Below are positions 8,091 through 60,962 of a stretch of DNA of 64,000 bases, one piece after another. The stretch lies in NCBI GenBank assembly GCA_000092065.1, contig CP000594.1; one strand, 5' to 3'. The notes under the pieces are model-generated. The model had not been told where the DNA came from. It did not search any database and worked only from the letters and a program-made list of their open reading frames with translations. Numbering within the stretch: the stretch's first letter is position 1; each line of letters opens with the position of its first letter. Both the position numbers and the translations under genes were made by a program. This DNA is from Ostreococcus lucimarinus (lineage: Eukaryota).

Positions 8091-8177
8091 GACGCGCGAG
8101 GCGCCCTGTGACGAACGACGCGCGCGGCCGACCGCCGCCTCAAAAGTCGACGCCGAGAGTCGCGCCGCGCGCGCGCG

Positions 8178-16775: not shown

Positions 16776-16916
16776 CGCCGTCGCCAGCGTCCACGCGCGC
16801 GTCCGACGCGCCGGCGACGCATCGCCGTCGCGACCGCGACGGCGCATCGCGCGCGCGCGCGCGCGTTCGTTCGAATCGAAATCGAACGCCGTCGTCGCGC
16901 GCCGGCGACTGGATGG

Positions 16917-17230: not shown

Positions 17231-19003
17231 ATGCCGCGCGCGTCGACGCGCGACGCCGACGCGCCGGGTTCGGCGCGCGCGGACGCTCGCGCGCGCGATG
17301 CCGCGTCGACGTCGCGCGAGACGGACGACGCCGACGCGCTGGCATCGGCGCGCGCGTCCGCGCTCCTCGACGACGCGACGCTCGAGCGCGCGATGGGGGC
17401 GACGGAGCATCGACGATTCGCGTTGAAGTGTCGCGCGCTGCGGTTCCGCGCGCGACGCGCGATCGAATCGAGACGCGACGGCGACGACGACGCGGCGCGC
17501 GAGCGACGCGCGGAGGACGCGGCGACGCTGGAGGCGACGGCGGCGTTTTGGCGCGAATTGTCGAGCGACGCGTCGAGCGGGACGAGGGCGCTGACGGCGC
17601 TGTTGAGACTCGCGCTGGACGGACGCGAGGGCGCGGGATCGGACGGGACGCGCGTGTCGAGCGCGAGAGCGCTGGCGAGGGCGCACCGGCCGCGAGACGT
17701 CGACGAGGACGAGGCGCCGACGACGGAGGCGCTGTTTCGGAGCGGCGACGCGCTGCGCGCGCGGGCGACGGCGCAGAATTTCGGAAGCGGCTTCGTCGCG
17801 GGGTTGGGGGGGGTGTTGACGCTGCCGATCGCGATCCCGGCGCAGCTCGCGGCGACGACGTTTACGTCGCTGCGACTCGCGCTGGCGCTGGCGATTTTAG
17901 CGGGGAAGGATCCGCTCGAACCGTCCGTCGCGGCGAAGGCGATCGCGGCGGCGCTCGGGAGCGCGGGAAGCGCGAGCGAAGAGTTGGACGACGTCGCGAG
18001 CGTGGGCGCGGGGGTGCGGGACGGGGTGCAATACGCCGCGATTCGAGCGAGCGGCACCGCGATGCAAAACGCTTCGTGGCGATTGACGCGCGCGGCGGCG
18101 ACAAAGTTGGCGCAGCGCGGGGCGCAGCGCGGCGCGTCGATGGCGATCACTCGCGCGGTGCCGATCATCGGAGGCGTCATCGGCGGCGCCGTGGACGGCG
18201 TCGTGACGCAAAACGCGGGGAACCGCGCGATGGCGGCGTTTTTCCCGCCGCGGCCGAAGGATTGTTCGACGATTGAGGAGAGCATTCGCAAGAGTAAAGA
18301 CGAGGCGGTGGCGAACGTGAAGAACGCGGCGGAAACCGCGGCGAAAACGTTAAACGGCGCGTTCGATAAAATATCCGTATCGCTGAAGACGAGTTTCGGA
18401 AAGCAAACGGACGACGCCGAGGGCGTCGCGACGCCGACGAGCGCGGGCTATCAAAGCCGCGAACTTTTAGCCGACGACTCGTGGGAACGCTTCGAGCGCG
18501 AGCGAGAATTGGAAAACATGCGCGCCGTCTTAGAAGACGACGTCGCGTTCGACGACGTGCACGCAGACGTGTTTTCGACGAAGTCGTCGTCCACGACGAC
18601 GACGACGACGACGACGAAATCTTCGCTCAAAGACGCCGACGCCGTCGAACGCGCCGCCAGGGACAAGAAAAAAGCCGACGCGTGGGCCGAATTCGACGCC
18701 CGATGGAAAGTGTTTCACGAAGACGTCGCCGACGCGACGACGAAAGTGATTCGTTACAAAGACATTCCGTGGCCGCCGAGCACGTCGCGCGCGCTCGCCG
18801 GCTGTCGCGGCAAAAACGCCGCGCCGGACGCCACCAAACGCGCGTATCGCAAACTCATCTTGCGTTTTCACCCCGATCGTTTCTCGAGGTTCACCCTTCA
18901 CGAGAGGGACAGGGATAAAATCATGGCCAAATGCGTGGCCGTGTCCGCCGCGATTCAGACGCAGTACGCCGAAGCGACTCGCGAGTCGCGAATAGCCGAA
19001 TAG
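17231..19003 (+). CDS. C-terminal J-domain (DnaJ) protein with a Gly/Ala-rich hydrophobic central region (590 aa)
   Basis: ATG at 17231. The C-terminus carries ..DATKRAYRKLILRFHPDRFSRF.. with the HPD tripeptide of J-domains. The central segment GFVAGLGGVLTLPIAIPAQLAATTFTSLRLALALAILAGKDP resembles bacterial EcsC-family proteins (tentative). The TAG stop lies inside a heptamer microsatellite. Confidence 0.6.
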   Translation: MPRASTRDADAPGSARADARARDAASTSRETDDADALASARASALLDDATLERAMGATEHRRFALKCRALRFRARRAIESRRDGDDDAARERRAEDAATLEATAAFWRELSSDASSGTRALTALLRLALDGREGAGSDGTRVSSARALARAHRPRDVDEDEAPTTEALFRSGDALRARATAQNFGSGFVAGLGGVLTLPIAIPAQLAATTFTSLRLALALAILAGKDPLEPSVAAKAIAAALGSAGSASEELDDVASVGAGVRDGVQYAAIRASGTAMQNASWRLTRAAATKLAQRGAQRGASMAITRAVPIIGGVIGGAVDGVVTQNAGNRAMAAFFPPRPKDCSTIEESIRKSKDEAVANVKNAAETAAKTLNGAFDKISVSLKTSFGKQTDDAEGVATPTSAGYQSRELLADDSWERFERERELENMRAVLEDDVAFDDVHADVFSTKSSSTTTTTTTTKSSLKDADAVERAARDKKKADAWAEFDARWKVFHEDVADATTKVIRYKDIPWPPSTSRALAGCRGKNAAPDATKRAYRKLILRFHPDRFSRFTLHERDRDKIMAKCVAVSAAIQTQYAEATRESRIAE

Positions 19004-19183
19004 CGAATAGCGAATAGCGAATAGCGAATAGCGAATAGCGAGTAGTCAACATTTGTGATTCAATAGTCGCAGTCACACGTCGACGCGAGTCGCGAGTCGC
19101 GAGTCGCGAGTACTGTAGCGAAAAGCGAGTAGTCATCTCATCATTCGTGATTCAATAGTCGCGGTCACACGTCGACGCGATCG
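18989..19183. repeat. Composite minisatellite: (GAATAGC)6-7, then a 50-bp unit, (GAGTCGC)4, and a second 50-bp unit
   Basis: Read directly. cgaatagc repeats run 18989-19035. The direct repeats gcgagtagtca..gtgattcaatagtcgc[a/g]gtcacacgtcgacgcga occur at 19038..19088 and 19125..19180. gagtcgc x4 lies at 19087-19114. Confidence 0.85.
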
Positions 19184-24918: not shown

Positions 24919-26037
24919 CTAATCATCGGTCGCGAGCTTGGCGGCGAACTTCCTGCCTTCGTCCGATCGCAGCCAAGACGCGATGTCTCGCTTTCCGCAC
25001 TCGTACATGTCCCACAATTCGGCGTCGTCCAAGGGGATGAACGTCGCGTACCTCGGCTTGGGCTCGCTCGGAATGATCGTAGCGTCCCAATCGGTCTTAT
25101 CCTCGGGATCTAATCCAACGCGCAACGTCGCCGGGCTCAGCGACGCGAGATTATTGCACACGCCGCCGTCGACGCAAACCATGCCCTTGTGCAAGCACAC
25201 GCCCGGAAACGTCCACGTCGGTATGTACGTCGACGCGATCACGGCGTCGATCAAATCGTCTCGCGTGTCGTACTCGGTGAGAATCACGTTGTGCGGCAGC
25301 GGTAACAACGACGTGACCGAGATGAAACACCTCCCCGTGCATCGTTCGTGCGCGTCCGCCGGCAAGACGTCGTCGAGCAAAAATCGGCACTTACTCCCCA
25401 CCGTGGTCAAATTCTCCATCCACGAATCTCGGTGCAGCGCGGCTATTTCCGGTATGTGCGCCCACACCACGTCGGGATCGACCCCGCACGCCGCGATCGC
25501 CGCCATGATCGACCCCACGCTCGATCCCGACCACCGCGCCTTCTCCAGCGCCTTCGCCCCGAACCTCTCGTACAATCCGTGGTACACCCCCAAGTGATAC
25601 CACGTTCGAAATCCCCCCCCGCACATCGCCACGCTCGCGTGTCCGTCGTGCACGACCGGCGTTCGCCGCCGTCCTCGTCGCGCGCCCGCGTCGCCGTGGT
25701 GCCTCCGCCTCGGCTTCCACATCGGCTTCCGCGCCGCCTCCCAAAACGCGATCCACGCCGCGATCCACGCCGCCTGCGCCAGCGCCGCCGGCGCGCCGTA
25801 CGCCACGCGCATCGCCACCACCAACCGTCCCTTCCCCGTCTCCAGGTACATCGGGTTTCGCTTCGCGTGAAACACCCCGTGCGCGAGCGCGTTCGCCGCG
25901 TACAGCGCCGCCGCGACGACGAGCATCCATCGCCACTCCTCCCGCGTCAGCGCCGCCCCCTCGAGCGCGCGCGCCAGCGTCGTCGCGCGCGCCATCCCGC
26001 TCGACGTCCGCACGCCGCGCGCGTGTGCGGCATCCAT
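24919..26037 (-). CDS. Patatin-like phospholipase (372 aa)
   Basis: ATG verified at 26035-26037 on the complement. Oxyanion-hole CGGGFRTW, nucleophile elbow GSSVGS (GxSxG) and catalytic-Asp motif VDGGVCNN. The ORF upstream of this ATG is Arg-rich junk. Confidence 0.8.
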   Translation of the reverse strand: MDAAHARGVRTSSGMARATTLARALEGAALTREEWRWMLVVAAALYAANALAHGVFHAKRNPMYLETGKGRLVVAMRVAYGAPAALAQAAWIAAWIAFWEAARKPMWKPRRRHHGDAGARRGRRRTPVVHDGHASVAMCGGGFRTWYHLGVYHGLYERFGAKALEKARWSGSSVGSIMAAIAACGVDPDVVWAHIPEIAALHRDSWMENLTTVGSKCRFLLDDVLPADAHERCTGRCFISVTSLLPLPHNVILTEYDTRDDLIDAVIASTYIPTWTFPGVCLHKGMVCVDGGVCNNLASLSPATLRVGLDPEDKTDWDATIIPSEPKPRYATFIPLDDAELWDMYECGKRDIASWLRSDEGRKFAAKLATDD

Positions 26038-26050
26038 CGCGCGTCGATCG

Positions 26051-26233
26051 ATACACCGATCGACGCACCGATCGACGCACCGATCGATCGCTATTTTGAT
26101 CCAACCTCGCCTCGAGCGTCGATCGTTTTTCGCGGCTCGATCGATCGGTCGGTCGCCGCGCTCGATCGACGTCTCGCGATCGACGTCGCGATCTCGTCGA
26201 ACCTCGGCGCGAGGTTGGATAAAAATAGCGATC
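26051..26233. repeat. 12-bp tandem repeat (ccgatcgacgca x3.5) followed by a 25-bp inverted repeat with a 98-bp spacer
   Basis: Tandem run 26051-26092. Inverted arms gatcgctattttgatccaacctcgc (26086..26110) and gcgaggttggataaaaatagcgatc (26209..26233) are reverse complements with one mismatch. The region is rich in CGATCG palindromes. It lies between divergent start codons at 26037 and 26366. Confidence 0.8.
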
Positions 26234-26365
26234 GGCGCGTCGATCGACGCGCGAACGAGTGGCTGAGATTCATTCGCCCGGTCGTTATCCGATCGCGAAT
26301 CGCGACGCGACGCGGCACACCGCGACGCGGACGCGCGACGTGGACGCGCGACGCGAGAGGCGTGC

Positions 26366-28195
26366 ATGGGAGCGTTGACGACGCGCGCGGCGCCTCGAAC
26401 GACGACGACGACGACGACGACGCGCGCGCGGTCGACGAGGACGCGAAAGACGGCGAAGACATTCGGGACGATCGCGCGAGGGACGACGACGACGCGACGC
26501 GCGAGCGCGGCGGGAGGGATGGTGACGGTGCGCGAGGTGCCGACGACGCCGATCGAGGGGCAGAAGACGGGCACGAGCGGACTGCGGAAGAAGGCGGCGG
26601 TGTTCAGCGAGGGGAACTATTTGGCGAACTGGGTGCAGGCGCTGTTCGGCGCGCTGCCGAGGCGCGAGGTCGAGGGGAGCGCGATGGTGCTGGGAGGGGA
26701 CGGACGATGGTTTAATAAGGAGGCGAGTCAAATAATTTTGAAACTGGCGGCGGGGAACGGGGTGAAGAAGATGTACGTCGGGAGGGATGGGTACTTGTGC
26801 ACGCCGGCGGCGAGCGCGGTGATTCGCGAACGCGGGGCGTACGGGGGATTCATCATGAGCGCGTCGCACAATCCGGGCGGGCCGAAGGAAGACTGGGGGA
26901 TCAAGTTTAATTACAGCTCGGGCGAACCGGCGCCGGAGAAGATCACGGATGCGATTTACGGGTTCACGCAAACCGTGGACACGTTGAAGATGGCGGACAT
27001 CCCGGACGTCGACTTGAGCGTGTGCGGCGTCACCAAGTTTGGTGACTTTGAGGTCGAAGTCATCGATCCGGTGGCCGATTACTTGAAGCTTCTCAAGCGA
27101 GTCTTCGACTTTGATCTCATCAAGTCGTTGTTGACGCGCCCGGATTTCAAGATGCAATTCGACGCCATGCACGCCATCACGGGCGCGTACGCCAAGCCCA
27201 TCTTTGTCGATGAACTCGGTGCGTCGCCAGACTCGTGCGTGAACGCCGTGCCGAAGGAAGACTTCGCGGGCGGTCATCCGGACCCGAACTTGACGTACGC
27301 CGAAGAGCTCGTCAAGGTGATGTTCTCCGCCGACGCGCCGGATTTCGGCGCCGCGTCCGACGGCGACGGCGATCGCAACATGATTCTCGGTAACAACTTC
27401 TTCGTGACCCCGAGCGATTCCGTCGCTATCATCGCCGCTAACGCGGTCGAGTGCATCCCGTACTTCAAGTCTGGTTTGAAGGGTTTGGCGCGCTCCATGC
27501 CCACCGCCGCCGCGCTCGATCGCGTCGCCGCGGGTCTCGGCGTCGAGTGCTTTGAAACCCCCACTGGGTGGAAGTTTTTCGGCAACTTGATGGACGCTGG
27601 TCGCTTGTCGGTGTGCGGTGAAGAATCCTTCGGTACCGGCGCCGATCACGTGCGCGAAAAGGACGGTCCCTGGGCCGTTCTCGCGTGGTTGTCCATCTTG
27701 GCGTACCGCAACAAGGACGTGCCGGTGGGCGGCAAAAAGGTGAGCGTCGAGCAAATCACCAAGGAACACTGGGCCAAGTACGGTCGCAACTTCTTCTCTC
27801 GTTACGATTACGAAGGCTGTGAGTCCGACCCGTGCAACGCCATGGTCGAGTCGCTCCGTGCCAAGGCTGCCGCCTCAAAGAAGGGCGACAAGTACGGCGA
27901 CTACGAGTTGGACTACGCCGACGACTTCGAGTACACCGATCCCATCGACGGTTCCGTGTCCAAGAATCAAGGCGTCCGCTTCGTCTTCACCGATGGTTCT
28001 CGTTTCATCTTCCGCCTGTCTGGCACCGGTTCTTCCGGCGCCACCGTGCGCATGTACATTGAGCAATACGAAGCCGATCCCGCCAAGCAGGGCGCCGACG
28101 CCCAAGTCGCCTTGGCGCCTTTGATCAAGATTGCTCTCGAGACCAGCGAGCTCGCCAAGTTCACCGGTCGCGAGTCCCCGACCGTGATCACGTAA
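26366..28195 (+). CDS. PGM: Phosphoglucomutase (alpha-D-phosphohexomutase), plastid-targeted form
   Basis: ATG at 26366. Ser/Thr/Arg-rich N-terminal extension, then canonical PGM start [23 protein letters not shown]. Active-site SASHNPGGP, metal loop DGDGDRNMI and GEESFGTG. Confidence 0.93.
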
Positions 28196-28706: not shown

Positions 28707-31700
28707 TCAGAGCATTCGGCTGGCGCGCTGCGCTGCGCGCGCGCGCGCAGCGGCGCGGCGGTCCGTCGGCGCGGTTTCAGTCGACGGCTCGGTCGCCGCT
28801 CGGTTATTCCGGCGCGGCGGTTCGACGACGTCGTTCGCGCGCGCGTCGGAGTCGCTCAGTTCGAGCGACTCTTTGGACTCGTCCACGTCGCCGTGGGAGT
28901 CGGAGTCGCCACCGGCGAGCTTGGTTGTATTCGGCGCGTCTTCGCCGAAACCAAAAGAGCGCATCATAGCGCGTGATTCGCGCTTTTCGATGCGACGTTG
29001 GACTCGCCAGCGAGAGTCATCCATTTTTTCTCGCCATGTCATTCGTCGACCAGATGAAGACTCTGGATCGTGCGTAACGTCGACGTGGGCCGTCGCGTTG
29101 ATTTCTTCTTGCATCACGGCTTCGAGCTCGGCGACCTTTTCGGTAGCGCTGAGCTCGTCGCGCATCTTGGTCATTTCAAAGTAGTCGTACGTGAACGGAT
29201 CAACGCTCGTCGACGCTGCGTTCGACGTCGCGGTAATAGATGATGTCGATGGTTTTCTTGGCGGTTTCGTCGGTGACTCGAGCATGATATCGGCCGACGG
29301 CGGCGTCCACGAAACCGAATCGCGCGCCGGGAGTCGCGGCGGTCGCGGGATGTAACCTGGCGGATACAAAGGCGCCGGCTTTTCGATCGATTCTTTTTCG
29401 GTTCGCTCGCTTTGTCGCGCCAGACGTAATTGTTGCGCGATGATTTCGTTGTACTGCGCCACGCGGGCCTCGACGCTGTCACGAGCTGCTTTTTCTCCTG
29501 TGGCGGCGTAGGCGGAATCGTCGCTCGCCACAGATTTGCGCTCACCCTCGCTCGAGTGCGACGCCACTTCGAACTCATCTTCAGAGGACCCACCGATGGC
29601 GGTGTTTTTCCTGCGCCAGCGCTCGTGATCGATCGCCTTGAGCTTGCGCTCGAGCGCGAGCGCTTCAATTTCGTGATCCCGATGCGCCGATTGATCCACC
29701 ATTGACGACTTGCGTGCTTGCCATTTGTTCCGCAAACTCTCCAAATGCACGCTGAGCTGAAGATGTCTCAGCTTTAAATCGTTCGCACCGGCTTTAGATA
29801 ACTCTTCTACCAGCACTTGATCGTCAAAAGCGGCGATCAGTTTCTCAGCCATTCGCGGATGCAACGCACGCGACGCCGCGTGGGTATCCACGATCGCACG
29901 TTTCACCGCCTCGCGTCTGTACGCGTGCTCGTCTTCGATTTCTTTTCGCTCAGCTTCTATCTTAGCCGCGATGACCTCGTCTTTGACGTCTCCGCGCACA
30001 GAGCGCAAGACTGTGATACAAAAGTTCAAATTCAACGCGTAAATGAGCAACGCTGCGATGACGGAGGCTGCTTGGTGCTTCACCGTGGACATCAACGCCC
30101 CGGCGTTGTAACTCACCAAAATTGTTGTCAGCGATGCGATCTCTACCTTGCGGTGTTGATCCTTCTCGTAAATGTCCAAAATCAACACCAACGCGAGGTA
30201 GCTTTGTAAGATGCCGATGGAGATGTACGCCGCGAGAAGCGGAGTTTCAGGAAGGAGCACCGAAGCTGCGACGAGCAAGCCTTTCCGCATCATCACCACG
30301 AATTCCCAGTAATACCTTTCTTGCGTGAATCCGATGTAAAGAAAGCCGTACAGCGCTTTTGTCTTTGCCCAGCGTAATTGATTCCGATGTCGTTTCAGCG
30401 CTCCAAGGATGAAATACGGAAATCCGAAGACGAATATCGAGGCTAAAATGAAATATCCATACATCGTCATCTTGTATCGAGCGTTATCAGTGCGCACGTT
30501 GTAATCGATGAACAAAAATCGTCCGATACCCTCGACAGAGGTCGAACGAATCATCTGCATGATGTTGGTAAAGATTGGGTACCAGCACATGGCGAGCGTC
30601 ACGGCTTTAAACAACCCGTTGGTGATGTCGCCCGCTGACGGCGCGAGCACTTCGAGTTCGTCCTCGGTCCATTGCTGGACAATATATCCTTCTTTATTCA
30701 CCTTTGTGAGAAGTTGCAACTTGTACGCATCCGGTTCGGAATCATTTAAATCTGGCGCGCGTTTCATGCGATCCAACTGGAATCGCAATCCTTCGACGTC
30801 TTCGCCCTCCCTTCTCGCGTTAATGTACGCCGACTCCAACGCATGCCTCTTTTCGTACCACTCACTTCGTAGTTTGAAGAACGCCGTCAGGCGAAGGTAT
30901 AAATAAAGAGGCACACACAGCGCCGCGAAGATGCCGACCGTGCCAAAACTGTACGTCGTGTACTGAATGTGATTCCACTTTGACACGCAATCCGTCGCAA
31001 ACGCCTTGATCGACGTCGTGGACGTGAGCCTGGCGAGCGGGAACAGCACGCCGACGACGTCTGGCCACCCGAGGTTGATCGTTCCGAGCGTTGCAAGCAT
31101 GTGAAAGTGAGAGACGATGACCTTGGTGTAGACGATTTGCGCTGGTAATGCGCTCCGCGCGGCGCGACAAATCAACAACATGGAGACGATTTGGACAATC
31201 GTGAGGACGAACAAGCTCATACCGCTTAGCCATTTTGGCCAACATTTCGTGCACCGCAGCGACGTTTCAAGCGAGCGCGAGTCTTCTAGACTGGCATACT
31301 CTTTTCGCGCATCACACGTACCACACAGCGTCCCAGAGTAACCGATGTTACACAATTCGTCGCCTTCACCGACGCCGCCTTTGCAGCTGTACGGTGATCG
31401 ACACCTTAGCACGCCCAACTTTGTCTCGTCGGCGCGCCAGTTGCCTTCCGAGAGAGATAATTTTGTGATGTCTCGTGAATCGCACACCGCGCCATCGGGA
31501 CAAGATCCACACTCGTACGCGTCGTACGGCTCCAATCTGTAATAACGCGTATACGTCGTCGTTCCATTTTGCGCCGGTCCAGTGAGTGTGCACTGACACG
31601 AGGTTTTGTTCACGTTTGCGAGATGGCCCGGAAGTGTTTCCCCGCTCGAAGTCACGTGCATCTGGCGCGGTTTGCCATCTTCGCCGGTGTACGTGTTCAT

Positions 31701-34700
31701 CCGTATCGGACACGCATCGCACAGTGCTGGTCCACTACCGGTTTTGTAAAAACCCGCCGCGCACGGCACACACGCACCGTACGGCCGCAACGAAGTTATG
31801 AAGCTCGAAATCCTGGATGGGTCGACTTGAGCGTAGAGACCTGGATAACTCGATACTGAAACTGACGGAGGTTGATAACCCGATCCTGAGGCGTCTTCCG
31901 TATATCCTGGATAACACTCGCACGAACCATTGGAGGTAGACTGCGAATGTGGCTTTACTGTGCTGCACGGAAAGAGCGTGAGTCCACCGGTAACGTTGAG
32001 CTCGGCGGTGCCAAGCTTAAACATAAGACTGTACGTCGTCCCGCGCCGACCGATGACTGTCAAATCTTTGAACGTCGCGAGACCGTTCGAGACGCGTTCT
32101 GACCCTCCGATCACCGCATATGGAGCCGGCGTTACTGTTACCGTCACATTATCCACTGAGTTTGTCACGACGTTGCCCGAAATATCGTAAACGGTGATTT
32201 CAAACGTTGGAAGCGATACGTTGCTGTCATAGCTCGATGGAATGCGCTGCGTACCGAACTCAAGCCTGTACGGATCTCCGGGCTCGATGATGACTTCCAG
32301 AGCATCGCCAATGAGAACCAAGTTTTGCGTTGACGTGCACTCGTTGGCTTGACATTCAGACTGAAATTCTAGCACGTAACGCCCTGCGAGCGGGCGAATG
32401 AATTTCAGCCCCGTTGCGGTGCCGACAAATCCAGGGTCGCTTCGCACGCCGTAAAAGTCCAAACCAGTCCCCGTGGTGCCAGCGACATTCGGAGGTGAAA
32501 GTCCACCAAGCGAGCGTAAATATGCGGTCTCAGCGGCGAGCTTGTTCTCGCTCGCTTCGCTACTATCTGGCGAGCAAAAGCTCTTTGCGCGATTGCTCTC
32601 TGTGCCATCGGCGCACCACGCCGCTACACCATTGACGATGTAAAGGGCGCCCACACTCACTGATCGTGAATTGCTCGGCGAACAACCAATTGTGGCGTCC
32701 GCGCACGATACGCTTGTTTCATCGGCGATGAGCGGTGACGTCACCGTTGTGGTGGACGTCGTCACTCCTGTGGCGCTCAGTGCGTACTGTTTTAGGTTGA
32801 CGTTGACGGCTCGGCGGGCTTCGGCGGTGTCCAACGAAGAGCCCATGAGTAATCCACCGGCGTCACGTGTGACGACAAAAATGTCAGTAAGATCGACGAC
32901 GTCTGCACTTTTGTATGGACGTGTATCTGTGCACAAACCGACGGGGAATTCCACGGTGACGTCAGCGCGAGCGCAATTTGGGCAACCGCACGCGTCCAGA
33001 GATGAAATATCGCCAGCCTTGATGAGAATGTCGAACGAATATGGCGTGAGGACCACGGGTGAAGGTGTCGACACAGTTACTCGATATGTCCCAGCGACGG
33101 GATTGTAGAGCCTGATGCCAGAGATTAGTCCAACGCCCGACGAGGTGGCGTATTGGCTGATTTCGGGCGGCTGCGAAAATGGGTCTTGCGTTGTCGACGT
33201 CACGTATTTTATGCCCACGCTCACATGTCGCAAGATCCCAAAGTCAGCGCTCGTGACTTCGTTTGCACCACCATCGGTAACCGTCACCGCAAACGGGGCT
33301 AATATCAGAACTCGTGCCGCCATGAGCGTTGTCGGACGACTGTACGTGGCGTCGTTTGGAGTTGGATAGCCACGCGAGCTCGGCACATTAAGTTGACTCG
33401 CATCGCCGAGGGTGATTGCCACGGCCACGCTATCCGATATCAACCCATCGCCTGCAAATGTCAAGACATACTGACCTACTTCCAGCGCTTGCGCGGTGAT
33501 GCCAGTAAATTTAACGATGGATCGTCCCATCGGCGCTGTAACCGATTTCGTAGCGTACGCTTGCGTCGTAAACGTCCTAGTCGAGTTGAATGAGGAACGT
33601 AAAGTCGCCGTGATAACCTTTGTGAACTGGTTGCTTTCCAATAACGTCCCACCAGCATCTTGCATGTGCACAGTGAATTCATCAAATAAAATGAGAGCAC
33701 TTGATTTGTATGAAGTCACGGTTTCGATGGTTGAGACGTGCTCTAGCTTCGCCGGAACACCTTCGATGATTTTCACCGTCATATCGTACGAGCTCAAGCC
33801 AGACGTGGAAAATCGGATGACATGCGTGCCCTGTGGTGGCGAACTGAGATAGAAATTACTCAGTACCACGGTCCCTGCGACTGTCGTACTACTTGTCGTA
33901 CCGAGCAACTGCGCGGTGCTATCCACCACGGAGATGGTCAAAGTGCGATTGACGCCGTCTTCGGCGAGCAGTTTGTTGCCCGCGGCGTCCACGACGTTCA
34001 GAACGAACGGTTCCGATGCACGACCAATAAGGGTGTAAGTCGATGACTTGAGCCCCACTTGACCGACCAAGCCTTCAAAGGAGTCCGGGAAGACGACGTC
34101 GAGCGACGCGGCAGAGCCCGGCCAAACGTCGTATGACACATCCACGTCAACCAAACCGGGGGATTTAAAGGTAACGATTGCCTTTCCACCGTGAATGGTG
34201 GACTTTGGAAGTCGAAATGCGATGTCGCTGAACGTCGCTGTGCCACTACTGATGGCTTTCGTGTGCGTTTGAGGTTGTGTCGCCGCGCACGCGTTTCCAG
34301 ACAACACACACGGATTCGTCCTGGCGACGTCAAACACTGCCTCAATCGTTCCGGCACAGCTCGCGTCGCCGGTGACACAGGTAGGAGAATACGCGCTCCC
34401 GACCAAATTATCGCCGCCATCCATAACGACAATGACGATTGGGCTCAAGACCACGAGCGCCGCTGACCTATACTGCGTACAAGTACACGAGGAACCACTT
34501 CGCAGGAGCGTCGTTGTCGTCGTACACAATCCTGTCCCTGTGTCGCGATATTGCACGTAATAATCATCGCAAGGCGCTCGTATAGCGAGATGGTGTGCGC
34601 GCCCGAGAGTCACAGTGATAGACTGCGTGAGATTCGAAAACGCTGGCATCGCTGGCACGTGAAATTTCAGCGTGTGCGTACCCACCTTTGCTCGTTCAAG

Positions 34701-37700
34701 CGCCAATCCCGCGAAAGTCACCGCGTTTGTCGCGACGTCAAAACTCGGACTCAATCCAGTCGACACAGCCAGCGGATCAGGAATGACAAACGCATGTCGT
34801 GTCGCAACCGTGGCATTATACGTCAAGTAATCGCTCTTCACCCCGATAGCATCGCTTGAGACGCCGGATGTGAACTCAAGGTACGCCACGACAGGAGTGT
34901 CCCCTAAAACGTAATTGACTCCATTTGCGTGCGCGTCGTACATTTGAAAATCGAACGCATCCAGAGGGACGTAATATGCCGCCGCGTAACGTCGAAACGT
35001 CGACATATTCATCACGCCAAACTCTGGTTCGTAAGTCGTCACTGGGGAGTTCGTGAGCGCAAAGCTACTCGGTACGCCTGACGTGACGGTGATGTTGAAG
35101 TTCAAATCCACGAGCGGCGAGGTGTTCGTGGACATGACGTTTCCAGAACTATCCTTCAGCGTGTTAGTCGTCGAAGAACACGTGATTCCGTGCACACCCA
35201 GCGTGACGGAAGACAAAGTCAAACCGGTGAGTACGGCGGCCCCAGTGCTCAAAGTATTGCCCGTGAGCGTTCCTGAAATAGAAAGTGTCGAGCTGGTGCA
35301 TGCGAAGGCGCGATCAACTGTGTACGAGAGCGTTGACGCATCATAACGGTCGTTCGCGCCCAAGAAGCTTCCCCCAATATCCGCCACATAAATCGTCAAA
35401 TCGCCCAGAGGCGTCGACGATCCGGCATAACGTATGTCAGAGCCGAACTCGAGGGTATGTTTCCACTGATGACCGATGTTGCCTTCGACCAGCTGAACGA
35501 GTTGCTTTGCCGGGCGAATGTAATCCGAACCAGTCGCGTAAAAGGCGATTACGTAATACCCAGCCGGTTGGACATCGAGCGTGATACTATTCGCTGCGAA
35601 CGTCCAAGTGGCTGTTCCAGTTGAATCCGTGACGCTCGTCGTGGAAGTCGGTTCGAGCGTGAAAGAGTCGCCGTATGCCCGAACGTCAACCGAGGCACCA
35701 GACTCCGGCGGCGATGTGATCAAATTATTTCCAGCGTCGTACAATCGCACCGTGATCGCGTTTGGGATGGTCAGCGTCGTTGAAGACGTCGTCATTGAGG
35801 GCACGATATGGTTATCTATCTCCAAATATCTCGGTCGACCGACCACAGTGGTGAATGCGGATATTGCCGAACCAAAGGACGCAGAGAATAGAAATCTGTA
35901 CGTCGCGTCCGCATCGTTTACTCCCCTGGACGCCGCAGGGTAGGTTAGATTGTTTACGAATATCGTTTTACCGGGTGTTCTCGCACCGATCGGTGCAGGA
36001 TTGAGAAGCTTCAAGTCACGGAATACCGCCACGCCTCGATGCGTAGACACTGTCGTGGAGCCATTGATAATCGATCCAGAGGTTCGCGGAGCGTTTGACG
36101 CGTCCACAGATGTCACCGAGATTGAGTGCGAAACTTCGTCAAAGTTGTGCAACCTGTTGCCTGCGGCGTCTAACACGTACACGTTTACGACGCCGACGTC
36201 GGATTCCTCATTAGTGGGCACCACCAATGTGTTTGTTGAGCTCGGTATCGCGGCCAATCCTACAGGCGCTCCAGGCACGACGGTGAAATGGAACGTCGTC
36301 GCCATCGCAAGGGCAATGCAACTTGAACCAGTGCAGTCTTCACCGATGACATCGACGACATAATTACCCATCCGCAAAGGTGCGCTAAAACGTAATTGAA
36401 ACGTTGCCTTACCATCCAAAGTGGTGATGGTGGACGGCACCGTCGTCATCGTCACCCCTGGTGTATCCGTGGAGAGCGAGGTGTTTAGCGTCGCCGTGAT
36501 TTTAAATCCCCGCGTCCCGCCAACGCCAAGATCATCCGCGATGACGGTGCCTCTGTTATCCACCAAGTTCACCGTCATCGCGTCGAGCGTCATTGTCGAC
36601 GCGCCAGCATCTTTCGTTGACTCATACGCAGTGTGAGCGATGTTTTGTCGCGCGTGCGTCACGCGAAGACCATTCGGCGTTCTATGCAGCGCTAGGGCGA
36701 CGCCGGTATGATAATCCACCCCATTCATGCTAAAATCCACCGTCACCGACGTCGGTGGCGGGTCTAACAACCACGGCATTTTCACGTGGTAGTCTCCACA
36801 TCCGTTTGCGCTCGTCGAAGGACAGAGGGGACACGTGACGCGTGTCGAGTTGACGTACGCCGCGTCCAACACGCTCTGAGCGCCGAATCGACATTTGAGC
36901 ACGCCGTCGACGAATGGACCGCCATCGATAGCAATTACCGCTGGATCCCCATTCGGTACTTCTCCCGTAAATAGCACCGAAGGCACGTGTGAATTCGTTA
37001 CCGACGTCGCGACGAGATTCGGCGGGTCGTAATACATGTAATTTGCCATTCCGCCGACCCATATAGAGTTTTCAAAAAACGTCGCGAGCGCGCTGCGATC
37101 GTCCGGATAACCCTCAAAACTGATACTGACGGCCGATATGTACGTACCGGTCGCCGCGAACGCACTGTACGACGGCGCATCGCATTCGATCGTTGTCGAA
37201 TTCACCAGTTTGGCTGGCACATACACGGGCGAACCGTCGTTCAAAAATCGGCACGCCACGCGGTGCGACAGAGTGTCGTCCGGGGCCCAGGAAGAGTCGT
37301 ATGGAAACCCAACACCACGAATCGTGAGCGTTGTCCCACCCGCCTTGGGTCCTCTTGAAGGGGAAATATCATCGATTTCTGTCACGGAGAAGCTTTGGTA
37401 CGAGATTTCTGCGTCCGAAACATTGTACGTCCCTGTGAACAACGCACCCATGCTTGGGATCGTCGTCATCGCACCGATCGGTCTTGTCGACGCCGTCGAC
37501 CCTTGAACTTCCATGCACGCCGATCCGACGCAGTTGGCATCCGGGAATACTTTGACTTTTACTATGCGCGTCGGAGCATTCACGTCTGACGCGTCCTGGC
37601 TCGTGAGGACGTACAGCGTCCCTCCACTCGCACCCCCATCGCTCACTGTCTCGATGGCGAGCGCATCCCTAACTAAACTACCACTCGTTCCTAACTTGAC

Positions 37701-39071
37701 GTGTTCTATCGCCGAGCTCGTGTTGTTGAATGATTTTCTAACCCGGTATACGCACGAGATGCGACTGACGCACGTTGCGCCGCACATCGCGCCGTTGTAA
37801 GGCGCACTCGATGTCGCGACGTAAGCATAATCTCCCATCACTCCGAGCGCGGTAAACGCGGTATACCTTCCGAGATAGCTCGACGAAAGCAAAGAATGAC
37901 CTTCGCACGCCGCGTCGATGGCGGTGGCGTCTTTAAAGTACAGCTCCCCATCCGCCGCGATTACGCTCTCGCTCGAGTACGGATTCAGGCGAACAATCGC
38001 GGGATAATCTTGCGCCGAACTAGCCTTCGCGCGACCTGCGAGAAACATATCGACGCCACCACCAGTTGTGCCGACCGTGACCGCCTCGGTGAACTTACCT
38101 GCGTCTCGTCTGTTGTGGCACGCCTCGCACGCCGCGCGCAGCGTCGGCAACGATATATCCTTCGCGCTCGGCGCTGCGTCGATACCGCTCGAATACACCA
38201 GCACGCGACCAAGCGCGCTCACCGCTGTGGGTGTTACTTTTAAAATCAAATCATCGTCCGTGCCCATGGCCGCAACGTCGACGATGTATCCATCCGTGGT
38301 TTTCTCGTGACGATTTCTAATCGTCCCGCCGCCCGACGCCAAATCTGACCACACGACGTAACCGTATTCAACTGGCTGCCCCGCCCTTCGCACCCACGCG
38401 TTTGCGATGGCGTATATCACATCACTCGTCGCGCTCGCGACGACGATCGGTCCGCGCATGGCTATCGTCGACCACCCGTCGCTCGTCGCCGCGTCGCCGC
38501 GCGGATGCCCGCACGACCCCTTCCATCCGTTTGGCACAGGATCATCCACGTCGAGCACGATCGTCCCATTCGCCTGCGGCCGCGCGGGCCAACGCGTGGG
38601 TTCATTCGCGTTCCACGCCCGCGCGCTCGCATCGCCCAACCGCGCGTAATGATCCACGCACAGCGCGTCTCGCCCGCCCATCGCGACGACTTCTCGCGTC
38701 CCCGCCGCGCGCGCCGTCGCGCACGTCACCTCCCGCGGCGCCGCCCCGACCCCCGTCGCCATCACCGGCGCCATCGCCGCGTACCACGTCTCCCGCACCG
38801 TCCTTCCATCGACCTCGACGACGCGCTCGAACGTCTCCACCGCGTCTCTCGCCGCGCCGCAGTCGACGCCGTCCCGGTCCGCGCGGCAGCGACACGTCTC
38901 ATCGATCTCGCACGTCCCGTACGACCGCTGCGCCAGGCACTCGCGCGGGCAAAAGCTATACGCGTACCCTTCGCGCGCGCTCGCGCCCAGTGATCCGCAC
39001 AGCAGCGCCAGCGCGCGCGTCACCGCGCGCGTTCGTCGCGCCGCGTGTGTCGGTTGCGCGCGCGACGACAT
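28707..39071 (-). CDS. Giant (3454 aa) extracellular IPT/TIG-repeat protein with EGF-like N-terminus, multi-pass TM region and charged coiled-coil tail
   Basis: ATG verified at 39069-39071, followed by a signal peptide (ALALLCGSLGASA), then Cys-rich CPRECLAQRSYGTCEIDETCRCRADRDGVDCG. Numerous Ig-like IPT/TIG units (e.g. ISPSRGPKAGGTTLTIRGVGF, AIDGGPFVDGVLKCRFG). At least 8 hydrophobic helices follow, starting WLSGMSLFVLTIVQIVSMLLI. Final 450 aa are Lys/Glu/Arg-rich coiled coil. One uninterrupted 10.4-kb ORF. Confidence 0.8.
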   Translation of the reverse strand: MSSRAQPTHAARRTRAVTRALALLCGSLGASAREGYAYSFCPRECLAQRSYGTCEIDETCRCRADRDGVDCGAARDAVETFERVVEVDGRTVRETWYAAMAPVMATGVGAAPREVTCATARAAGTREVVAMGGRDALCVDHYARLGDASARAWNANEPTRWPARPQANGTIVLDVDDPVPNGWKGSCGHPRGDAATSDGWSTIAMRGPIVVASATSDVIYAIANAWVRRAGQPVEYGYVVWSDLASGGGTIRNRHEKTTDGYIVDVAAMGTDDDLILKVTPTAVSALGRVLVYSSGIDAAPSAKDISLPTLRAACEACHNRRDAGKFTEAVTVGTTGGGVDMFLAGRAKASSAQDYPAIVRLNPYSSESVIAADGELYFKDATAIDAACEGHSLLSSSYLGRYTAFTALGVMGDYAYVATSSAPYNGAMCGATCVSRISCVYRVRKSFNNTSSAIEHVKLGTSGSLVRDALAIETVSDGGASGGTLYVLTSQDASDVNAPTRIVKVKVFPDANCVGSACMEVQGSTASTRPIGAMTTIPSMGALFTGTYNVSDAEISYQSFSVTEIDDISPSRGPKAGGTTLTIRGVGFPYDSSWAPDDTLSHRVACRFLNDGSPVYVPAKLVNSTTIECDAPSYSAFAATGTYISAVSISFEGYPDDRSALATFFENSIWVGGMANYMYYDPPNLVATSVTNSHVPSVLFTGEVPNGDPAVIAIDGGPFVDGVLKCRFGAQSVLDAAYVNSTRVTCPLCPSTSANGCGDYHVKMPWLLDPPPTSVTVDFSMNGVDYHTGVALALHRTPNGLRVTHARQNIAHTAYESTKDAGASTMTLDAMTVNLVDNRGTVIADDLGVGGTRGFKITATLNTSLSTDTPGVTMTTVPSTITTLDGKATFQLRFSAPLRMGNYVVDVIGEDCTGSSCIALAMATTFHFTVVPGAPVGLAAIPSSTNTLVVPTNEESDVGVVNVYVLDAAGNRLHNFDEVSHSISVTSVDASNAPRTSGSIINGSTTVSTHRGVAVFRDLKLLNPAPIGARTPGKTIFVNNLTYPAASRGVNDADATYRFLFSASFGSAISAFTTVVGRPRYLEIDNHIVPSMTTSSTTLTIPNAITVRLYDAGNNLITSPPESGASVDVRAYGDSFTLEPTSTTSVTDSTGTATWTFAANSITLDVQPAGYYVIAFYATGSDYIRPAKQLVQLVEGNIGHQWKHTLEFGSDIRYAGSSTPLGDLTIYVADIGGSFLGANDRYDASTLSYTVDRAFACTSSTLSISGTLTGNTLSTGAAVLTGLTLSSVTLGVHGITCSSTTNTLKDSSGNVMSTNTSPLVDLNFNITVTSGVPSSFALTNSPVTTYEPEFGVMNMSTFRRYAAAYYVPLDAFDFQMYDAHANGVNYVLGDTPVVAYLEFTSGVSSDAIGVKSDYLTYNATVATRHAFVIPDPLAVSTGLSPSFDVATNAVTFAGLALERAKVGTHTLKFHVPAMPAFSNLTQSITVTLGRAHHLAIRAPCDDYYVQYRDTGTGLCTTTTTLLRSGSSCTCTQYRSAALVVLSPIVIVVMDGGDNLVGSAYSPTCVTGDASCAGTIEAVFDVARTNPCVLSGNACAATQPQTHTKAISSGTATFSDIAFRLPKSTIHGGKAIVTFKSPGLVDVDVSYDVWPGSAASLDVVFPDSFEGLVGQVGLKSSTYTLIGRASEPFVLNVVDAAGNKLLAEDGVNRTLTISVVDSTAQLLGTTSSTTVAGTVVLSNFYLSSPPQGTHVIRFSTSGLSSYDMTVKIIEGVPAKLEHVSTIETVTSYKSSALILFDEFTVHMQDAGGTLLESNQFTKVITATLRSSFNSTRTFTTQAYATKSVTAPMGRSIVKFTGITAQALEVGQYVLTFAGDGLISDSVAVAITLGDASQLNVPSSRGYPTPNDATYSRPTTLMAARVLILAPFAVTVTDGGANEVTSADFGILRHVSVGIKYVTSTTQDPFSQPPEISQYATSSGVGLISGIRLYNPVAGTYRVTVSTPSPVVLTPYSFDILIKAGDISSLDACGCPNCARADVTVEFPVGLCTDTRPYKSADVVDLTDIFVVTRDAGGLLMGSSLDTAEARRAVNVNLKQYALSATGVTTSTTTVTSPLIADETSVSCADATIGCSPSNSRSVSVGALYIVNGVAAWCADGTESNRAKSFCSPDSSEASENKLAAETAYLRSLGGLSPPNVAGTTGTGLDFYGVRSDPGFVGTATGLKFIRPLAGRYVLEFQSECQANECTSTQNLVLIGDALEVIIEPGDPYRLEFGTQRIPSSYDSNVSLPTFEITVYDISGNVVTNSVDNVTVTVTPAPYAVIGGSERVSNGLATFKDLTVIGRRGTTYSLMFKLGTAELNVTGGLTLFPCSTVKPHSQSTSNGSCECYPGYTEDASGSGYQPPSVSVSSYPGLYAQVDPSRISSFITSLRPYGACVPCAAGFYKTGSGPALCDACPIRMNTYTGEDGKPRQMHVTSSGETLPGHLANVNKTSCQCTLTGPAQNGTTTYTRYYRLEPYDAYECGSCPDGAVCDSRDITKLSLSEGNWRADETKLGVLRCRSPYSCKGGVGEGDELCNIGYSGTLCGTCDARKEYASLEDSRSLETSLRCTKCWPKWLSGMSLFVLTIVQIVSMLLICRAARSALPAQIVYTKVIVSHFHMLATLGTINLGWPDVVGVLFPLARLTSTTSIKAFATDCVSKWNHIQYTTYSFGTVGIFAALCVPLYLYLRLTAFFKLRSEWYEKRHALESAYINARREGEDVEGLRFQLDRMKRAPDLNDSEPDAYKLQLLTKVNKEGYIVQQWTEDELEVLAPSAGDITNGLFKAVTLAMCWYPIFTNIMQMIRSTSVEGIGRFLFIDYNVRTDNARYKMTMYGYFILASIFVFGFPYFILGALKRHRNQLRWAKTKALYGFLYIGFTQERYYWEFVVMMRKGLLVAASVLLPETPLLAAYISIGILQSYLALVLILDIYEKDQHRKVEIASLTTILVSYNAGALMSTVKHQAASVIAALLIYALNLNFCITVLRSVRGDVKDEVIAAKIEAERKEIEDEHAYRREAVKRAIVDTHAASRALHPRMAEKLIAAFDDQVLVEELSKAGANDLKLRHLQLSVHLESLRNKWQARKSSMVDQSAHRDHEIEALALERKLKAIDHERWRRKNTAIGGSSEDEFEVASHSSEGERKSVASDDSAYAATGEKAARDSVEARVAQYNEIIAQQLRLARQSERTEKESIEKPAPLYPPGYIPRPPRLPARDSVSWTPPSADIMLESPTKPPRKPSTSSITATSNAASTSVDPFTYDYFEMTKMRDELSATEKVAELEAVMQEEINATAHVDVTHDPESSSGRRMTWREKMDDSRWRVQRRIEKRESRAMMRSFGFGEDAPNTTKLAGGDSDSHGDVDESKESLELSDSDARANDVVEPPRRNNRAATEPSTETAPTDRRAAARARAAQRASRML

Positions 39072-39469
39072 CGGCGTCTTCGTCGCGCGTTCGCGTCGTC
39101 TTCAGCGCATCGCACTCGATGTCCGCGCGTCGGGCGATGCGCGACGGTGCGTTTTATCCGCGCGTCGCGTCGCGTCGCGTCGTCGCGTCGCGCGCGCGTC
39201 GCGGTTCGGCGTCGCGCGTCATTCCCCCGCGGCTCAGTCTCGTTCGGCTCTTGGATACAACACGGAACGTGCGCGCACATCGAATCGTCGCGCTTGACCG
39301 GCGCGCGGGAGACGCGCGCGCGGCGAGAGCGCGACGCCGCGCGCGCGATCGCGGTCGATCGTGATTCGAACCGCGCGCGACGGCGCGCGGGAGCGAACGC
39401 GGACGTCGACGCGCGGGCGCGAAGGCGCGCGCGTCGGGAGACGCGAGACGTCTCTTCGTATCCCTCGCG

Positions 39470-60212: not shown

Positions 60213-60962
60213 ATGAGAAACGCGGCGACGGATTTAAACGCGTCGCGGGCGAAGGCGACGACGCAACCGCGACGCGTGCGAACGCGGTTTCGACAAAAGT
60301 ACGACGCCGGGGAGATACCGGCGCGCGTGGCGCACGGAACCGGCGCGAACGCGATCGCGTGGCGCGTCGATCCGAGCGCGCTCGACGCGAGCGCGTACTT
60401 GCCGTTGTTTATCGATGGGTTAAAGGAGACGAAGCATCCGTATCGCTTGCTCGCGGTGCGAGGCGGGATCGAGTTGACGCGCGCGTGCGGCGAACGCGCG
60501 TTGCTCGACGCCTTGCCACGGTCAGTCTTGCCGATGAAAGAAGCGCTCGGAACGGGCGACATGGCCGTGACCGCCGTCGCGCTCGAGCTCTTGCGAGAGT
60601 TCGTCAAGGTATCGCCGTCGATCGGTGAGGCTTTGGTACCGTATTACAGAAATCTGCTCCCGGCGTTGAACGCGTTGAAAGACGTCTCCGACGTCTACGT
60701 CTCTCTCGTCAACTTAACCGACTGTCGCTCCTGGCGCGAGCCTCACCGTCGTTCCCGCGTCACCGACGACGCCTCGGACGTCGCCGACGACGTCGACCGC
60801 TTTCCCTCGCGCGAAATCGTCGGCTGCGGCCGCTCCAAGCGCAACATCGGCTCTCTCGTTCGCGCCACTCTTCGCGCGCTCGAGCGTCGCGGCGGCGCCG
60901 ACGCTCTGGTGAACATCAAGTACCAAATTCCCACGTATCAGAGCTGCGTTCGCTGCGAGTGA
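60213..60962 (+). CDS. PACRG: Parkin co-regulated gene protein (PACRG), axonemal/basal-body protein
   Basis: ATG at 60213. FRQKYDAGEIPARVAHG..IAWRVDPSALDASAYLPLFIDGLKETKHPYRLLA..ALVPYYRNLLPALNALKD..VNIKYQIPTYQSC is collinear with PACRG across the whole conserved core. Confidence 0.85.
   Translation: MRNAATDLNASRAKATTQPRRVRTRFRQKYDAGEIPARVAHGTGANAIAWRVDPSALDASAYLPLFIDGLKETKHPYRLLAVRGGIELTRACGERALLDALPRSVLPMKEALGTGDMAVTAVALELLREFVKVSPSIGEALVPYYRNLLPALNALKDVSDVYVSLVNLTDCRSWREPHRRSRVTDDASDVADDVDRFPSREIVGCGRSKRNIGSLVRATLRALERRGGADALVNIKYQIPTYQSCVRCE

Follow-up and report, generated by a model that had tools for sequence, protein, structure and literature searches.

The window, that is, the whole 64,000-nt stretch of Ostreococcus lucimarinus contig CP000594.1 that was analysed, contains two head-to-head genes separated by a gap of 328 bp. 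The coding sequence of a patatin-like phospholipase lies on the minus strand (24919 to 26037, 372 aa; Pfam PF01734, E 4.7e-14), with its ATG at 26037. That of a plastid-type phosphoglucomutase (PGM) lies on the plus strand (26366 to 28195, 609 aa), with its ATG at 26366. Patatin and PGM had been named as the flanking genes in a sequence-only reading of the window, and the domain searches agreed, detecting the Patatin domain and four PGM domains (I to III and the C-terminal domain). An identical 372-aa patatin gene call was obtained in locus copies L002, L027 and L038, and the orthologues elsewhere were 366-368 aa long. Residues 52-609 of PGM were 100% identical to XP_001421345.1 of O. lucimarinus CCE9901, so the window represents nuclear DNA from this picoalga or from a strain nearly identical to it. 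This RefSeq model (558 aa) begins at Met52 (26519), and the open frame from 26366 adds 51 aa. The added presequence (26366-26518) is rich in Thr and Arg and resembles a plastid transit peptide. Across haplotypes the (ACG)n run in it varied in length, giving proteins of 606, 609 or 611 aa. The published PGM model may be truncated at the N-terminus.

A palindromic feature occupies the entire gap between the two genes. The gap itself is non-coding, since the indels of 1, 2, 4 and 5 nt between haplotypes break the reading frame, and a hidden coding sequence was ruled out on the same grounds. The minus-strand frame of patatin (24919-26574) continues without a stop codon for 537 nt upstream of the start, through the gap and into PGM. 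Owing to this open frame, prokaryotic gene callers produced spurious ORFs of 58-166 aa on metagenome contigs.

Almost all of the sequence from 26037 to 26254 forms one imperfect palindrome. Its most regular part is the inverted repeat that had been described as near-perfect and 25 bp long, and the description held: GATCGCTATTTTGATCCAACCTCGC (26086-26110) paired with the reverse complement of 26209-26233 with one mismatch, across a 98-bp spacer. The arms reach 26 nt (26085-26110 and 26209-26234) with the flanking C/G pair, and 38 nt at 87% complementarity. The left arm has the minus-strand sequence GCGAGGTTGGATCAAAATAGCGATCG, and its TATA-like core (26091-26101) is directed toward patatin. The right arm, GCGAGGTTGGATAAAAATAGCGATCG on the plus strand, has its TATA-like core at 26215-26229, directed toward PGM. 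These two cores were the only patches in the 328-bp gap with at least 8 A/T in 10 positions, in line with the earlier statement that the arms hold the sole AT-rich patches. An outer pair of arms was also recognized. The left one, TCGCGCGTCGATCGA (26037-26051), begins where the patatin start codon has its first base, and the right one, TCGATCGACGCGCGA (26240-26254), is its perfect 15-nt complement. When one half of 26085-26234 was reverse-complemented and aligned with the other, 59 of the 80 aligned positions matched.

The remaining parts of the gap are mostly repetitive. The reported 12-bp tandem repeat was recovered at 26045-26087 by Tandem Repeats Finder (period 12, 3.6 copies, 93% matches, score 72; consensus CGATCGACGCAC). 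Its copy number differed between haplotypes through indels of 4-12 nt, and it probably lies within the 5′ leader of patatin. The 98-bp spacer (26111-26208) is CG-rich, weakly self-complementary and hypervariable across haplotypes. We counted five CGATCG palindromes in it (at 26120, 26138, 26142, 26163 and 26177) instead of the six or more that had been claimed, and two further copies overlap the outer ends of the arms. A small local hairpin at 26200-26216 consists of the stem AACCTCG / CGAGGTT and a 3-nt loop (26207-26209). On the PGM side, the plus-strand block GCGTCGATCGACGCGCGAACGAGTGGCTGAG...CCCGGTCGTTATCCGATCG (26235-26299) was the least variable non-coding block and nearly invariant in the haplotype alignment; it may hold the transcription start and the leader of PGM. 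Hypervariable CGCGACG-type repeats on the plus strand (26300-26365; Tandem Repeats Finder periods of 5, 7 and 13 nt), with indels across haplotypes, fill the remainder up to the PGM start codon.

The symmetry of the inverted repeat is real and non-random. No match to the arm GATCGCTATTTTGATCCAACCTCGC at up to 3 mismatches arose in 100 dinucleotide-preserving shuffles of the window. Over the whole gap CGATCG occurred 13 times, compared with 5.2 ± 1.8 times in local dinucleotide shuffles, none of 2000 of which reached 13; elsewhere in the non-coding part of the window its frequency was about 2.8 per kb. Among the approximately 30 intergenic regions of the window, only the patatin-PGM gap carried a long, complex inverted repeat. 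The other intergenic inverted repeats did not exceed 15-18 nt and were plain (CG)n. The structure recurred in many independent metagenome assemblies, and is therefore no assembly artefact.

The palindrome is single-copy in the window, and the same holds for environmental DNA of O. lucimarinus. Elsewhere in the 64 kb, neither a search for the arm at up to 3 mismatches nor a short-word BLAST of the whole element gave a match. An exact-match scan of 241 million metagenome records with the arm returned this locus and unrelated chance matches, and a scan of viral contigs gave chance matches in AT-rich contigs only. A dispersed repeat or transposon was rejected on the basis of these searches. [quoted passage not shown] Similarities to such elements are a non-coding unit of 150 bp, well within their limit of 800 bp, with terminal inverted repeats of 25-26 nt, AT-rich sequence near its ends and the ability to fold back. 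In the L038 lineage, related 12-mers (CGATCGATACAC / CGATCGACGCRC) are also present on both sides of the element. However, MITEs exist as multiple dispersed copies, and no second copy was seen in the 64-kb window or the metagenome scan. The flanking CGATCG-based 12-mers are nearly palindromic and can be read as both direct and inverted repeats, so they provide no unambiguous target-site duplication. In addition, no matching inverted repeats flank the glycosyltransferase genes of the sister species. We therefore regard a transposon remnant as unlikely. Searches of the literature on Ostreococcus yielded nothing specific on a CGATCG motif, on palindromic promoters or on transposons of this sort.

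The palindrome was predicted to fold with high stability, at -85 kcal/mol as DNA (z -6.7 against shuffles) and -92.7 kcal/mol as RNA (z -6.4). The proposed stem-loop-forming element is thermodynamically possible (z about -6.5), but the pairing did not look selected. At least five independent changes in the arms were found over about 17 haplotypes, and all of them were one-sided and none was compensated, which disfavours a selected hairpin. The predicted stability is also what any palindrome would show, and a 98-bp spacer is long for the extrusion of a cruciform. Were the arms promoter cores, each mRNA would lack at least one of them. The best Rfam score was 24.8 bits, compared with a gathering score of 114, and ARAGORN detected no tRNA. 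A functional hairpin, cruciform or structured RNA with selected pairing, such as a regulatory stem-loop or a small-RNA precursor, is accordingly very improbable. As a separate matter, a known RNA was dismissed, with nothing near the threshold in the Rfam E-value scan and no tRNA from ARAGORN.

For comparison, loci from three other Ostreococcus lineages were collected through PGM homologues and their contigs. In all three the patatin and PGM genes are separated by another gene, of the glycosyltransferase type. The order is patatin-GT90-PGM (GT90, PF05686) in L035-37, a lineage whose PGM is about 87% identical in nucleotides over the aligned part, and in the O. mediterraneus-type loci L042-44. 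The GT90 proteins of these two lineages are 54% identical (E 1e-157). In the O. tauri-type loci (L008, L045-47) the order is patatin-Nucleotid_trans-PGM (Nucleotid_trans, PF03407). The slot of the intervening gene, equivalent to 26038-26365 of the window, spans 2423-4408 in L008/L045, 1754-3415 in L035 and 2793-4286 in L042. Gene turnover among Ostreococcus lineages seems to have a small hot spot here. By contrast, every O. lucimarinus-type contig has the head-to-head patatin/PGM order. In a Micromonas-like outgroup the neighbours of PGM were unrelated.

The arms, the palindrome and the CGATCG cluster were absent from all three other lineages. Their sequences upstream of the genes could not be aligned with that of the O. 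lucimarinus type, to which the arms were confined. The sequence-only reading had named a lack of conservation of the arms in relatives as a refutation of its proposal, and the arms are indeed not conserved there. Nor did the comparison reveal regulatory elements conserved at the orthologous locus of related species. A multi-species alignment of the upstream regions averaged 51% identity, and local alignments of the sister-species upstream regions with either half of the palindrome gave only CG-rich, low-complexity matches. The likeness of the right-arm core to A-rich elements upstream of PGM in other species was too weak for homology to be established. A tblastn search of the window with the GT90 and Nucleotid_trans proteins found no remnant of a lost gene. 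A transposon carrying the glycosyltransferase gene was considered and discarded, as GT90 and Nucleotid_trans lack matching flanking inverted repeats in the sister species. Since the palindrome is confined to the O. lucimarinus type and a gene lies between the pair elsewhere, it is a young structure that sits where a gene was lost. Both the palindrome and the patatin-PGM junction are derived, restricted to the O. lucimarinus lineage and located where GT90 was lost.

The variation within O. lucimarinus was examined in about 17 independent copies of the locus, drawn from the contigs of PGM homologues and the metagenome arm scan. All of them carried the palindrome, with a degenerate right arm in L015, and in 11 haplotypes the 25-26-nt inverted repeat was perfect. 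The single mismatch in the window is due to G26098, which was seen in the window only; the 11 other haplotypes have T at this position. Both the junction and the palindrome are older than the split of the main population from the L038 and L015 sub-lineages. The left arm occurred as four alleles, every one of them derived by one-sided changes, including two changes in L038 and L039 and one in L041. The right-arm core GGATAAAAATAGC was identical in 14 of 15 cleanly assembled haplotypes. In L015, six clustered substitutions erased the right-arm AT core. At the equivalent of 26213-26230 in this copy, GGTTGGATAAAAATAGCG was replaced by GGGTCGACGAAGATCGCG, and the six substitutions look like a single multi-nucleotide event, for example a conversion or a template switch.

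The CGATCG-rich, low-complexity spacer between the genes is a mutational hot spot. Among seven close haplotypes the pairwise diversity was 0.003-0.0045 at the third codon positions of the flanking genes, 0.011-0.018 in the arms and 0.010 in the block 26235-26299. It rose to 0.054 in the 98-bp spacer, 0.066 in the 12-nt tandem repeat and 0.083 in 26300-26365. The ranges of the pairwise diversity were 0.054-0.095 for the 98-bp spacer, 0.066-0.105 for the tandem repeat and 0.003-0.011 for third codon positions. The arms and the block 26235-26299 were the calmest parts of the gap, and the arms were at least as variable as the third codon positions of the flanking genes, a level at which purifying selection on them is not demonstrable. 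The small hairpin also varied in a characteristic manner. Its loop (26207-26209) occurred in wild haplotypes either as GCG or as the reverse complement CGC, between the same 7-bp stems. All four combinations of the loop state with an A/C variant at 26201 were present. This indicates that the loop has been inverted recurrently, and the pattern is characteristic of hairpin-mediated template switching.

Assembly of this region from environmental DNA was often incomplete. Many contigs ended inside or beside the spacer (L033, L034, L001, L003-L006), those of L001 and L003-L006 within 26300-26365, which indicates that the palindrome disrupts metagenome assembly. Contig L040 (1-840) starts with a fold-back, in which the reverse-complemented PGM 5′ end and the palindrome are joined at the arm to a forward copy. 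This fold-back joins two haplotypes, whose flanks differ by 16 mismatches plus indels. Such breaks and fold-backs matter for the reconstruction of Ostreococcus genomes from environmental data.

The sequence-only reading had suggested that the symmetry serves a bidirectional promoter. The proposal is plausible. The part of it that stood is positional: the palindrome fills a head-to-head gap, and its cores are oriented toward the genes at plausible distances. The part that did not is the conservation of the arms in relatives. The gap of 328 bp falls well below the spacing of about 1 kb within which head-to-head genes are considered to share a bidirectional promoter. Head-to-head pairs are very common in Ostreococcus (O. 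tauri has 2288 bidirectional transcript pairs; PMC4035068), where the typical intergenic region is shorter than 200 bp (PMC2850359). Truly bidirectional elements may be comparatively rare in the genus according to a footprinting study (Piganeau et al. 2009) as it is cited in PMC2850359, and such rarity would fit a separate module for each gene.

We consider there to be an even chance that the palindrome represents two mirror-image core-promoter modules, one for each gene, made by inverted duplication. A promoter-proximal module would have been duplicated in inverted orientation to yield the two arms, and the likely mechanism would be a switch of strand or template at the numerous short CGATCG palindromes. 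The process that flips the 3-nt hairpin loop in the spacer could thus have formed the larger palindrome as well. Each arm would now act alone as a core-promoter module, with its TATA-like element GGATAAAAATAG directed toward one gene, the left arm facing patatin and the right arm facing PGM, and the palindrome would not need to fold. Read in this way, it probably gives each gene a promoter core that mirrors the other.

The position of the AT cores is consistent with such a role. The patatin-side core lies 54-64 nt and the PGM-side core 137-151 nt upstream of the respective ATG. AT patches near other genes of this GC-rich window mostly lie at upstream distances of about 35-180 nt. Comparable motifs occur in sense orientation ahead of other genes: 105 nt before the one that ends at 16847 lies the ATAAAA-type motif ATATAAAAAT, and 67 nt before the one at 60213 lies AAAAATAGC. 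Another ATAAAA-type motif, GGATAAAA at 39152, lies in sense orientation 81 nt upstream of the start of a 3454-aa gene. Like a TATA box, each core is an A/T-rich element of about 10 nt that is oriented to its gene, with plausible spacing to the start codon; similar A-rich elements lie upstream of other genes in the window. The arms read GGATAAAAATAG, or GGATCAAAATAG in the left arm of the window, which is A/T-rich but not canonical when compared with TATAWAWR. Moreover, GATAAAAATAG departs from this consensus, and the identity between the arms covers 26 nt, far more than a TATA box. Only about 10 nt of it would be accounted for by a TATA-like core, which counts against the promoter interpretation; the remaining identity beyond the core may simply stem from a recent duplication.

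A neutral origin accounts for several of these observations and is a serious rival, although we hold it with less confidence than the mirror-image modules. The palindrome and the CGATCG minisatellite would then be non-functional by-products of the break repair that accompanied the deletion of GT90, or of later template switching during replication and slippage in low-complexity DNA. Both genes would start from the GC-rich spacer anyway, and the AT cores would be incidental. Several findings favour such a scar. The spacer is far more variable than the third codon positions of its neighbours and the arms are no better conserved than these positions, a finding that also counts against the promoter interpretation. 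Decay affects one arm at a time: the PGM-side core is gone in L015, and the patatin-side core is altered in L038/39, L041 and the window, so neither arm looks indispensable. Nothing is conserved in other species, the loop-flip polymorphism represents ongoing template switching, and two other divergent promoters of the window, at 8091-8177 and at 39072-39469, lack an AT patch under the 8/10 criterion. On the other hand, variation within the spacer is clearly lowest in the arms and in the block 26235-26299, and the AT cores are oriented and spaced as are the AT patches upstream of other genes. Following the loss of the GT90 gene, furthermore, both genes must draw their promoters from the 328-bp gap.

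Returning to the mirror-image modules, their origin might be linked directly to this loss. After GT90 disappeared, a template switch could have copied the core-promoter module of PGM to the other strand, thereby supplying a promoter for patatin. We put this sequence of events forward tentatively and find it rather doubtful. If true, a starch-metabolism gene and a lipase-type gene would have been newly wired to mirror copies of one module, and the locus would be a datable, still polymorphic example of promoter rebuilding in compact genomes that have lost a gene.

The features of the locus overlap with two further known kinds of system. Like bidirectional RNA polymerase II promoters, it lets two genes diverge from a short gap. 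However, its halves are near-exact mirror copies, which points to inverted duplication and not to a shared element read in both directions, and the pair is no older than O. lucimarinus. Quasi-palindrome mutagenesis and hairpin-loop inversion by replication template switching are known from bacterial genomes and plastid non-coding DNA. The flipping of a short loop between inverted stems, GCG to CGC, within the population is of the same type. The larger palindrome could likewise have arisen by a strand switch at CGATCG microhomologies, if the inferred mechanism is correct. The difference is one of scale, as an inverted duplication of about 75 bp in a nuclear promoter region is concerned here. 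We regard the locus as a young example of these known kinds, a divergent promoter region combined with palindrome formation by template switching. The patatin-PGM spacer is in this sense a local curiosity and not a new kind of element. The halves of the 328-bp spacer mirror each other and now decay independently in wild populations. If the promoter interpretation is right, they provide a small natural experiment with a known ancestral state (patatin-GT90-PGM) and a clean gene loss, which could show how promoters are regenerated after deletions in extremely compact eukaryotic genomes. Leaving that interpretation aside, this is an ordinary divergent intergenic region with unusual local symmetry.

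Two other features of the window were noted. The 3454-aa gene mentioned above is a single minus-strand ORF (28707-39071) with TIG domains, and its GC content of 0.50-0.56 is clearly below that of its surroundings. At about 18999-19041, just after the gene ending at 19003, serial 8-nt matches are spaced 7 nt apart, and this pattern suggests an intergenic tandem array with a period of 7 nt.
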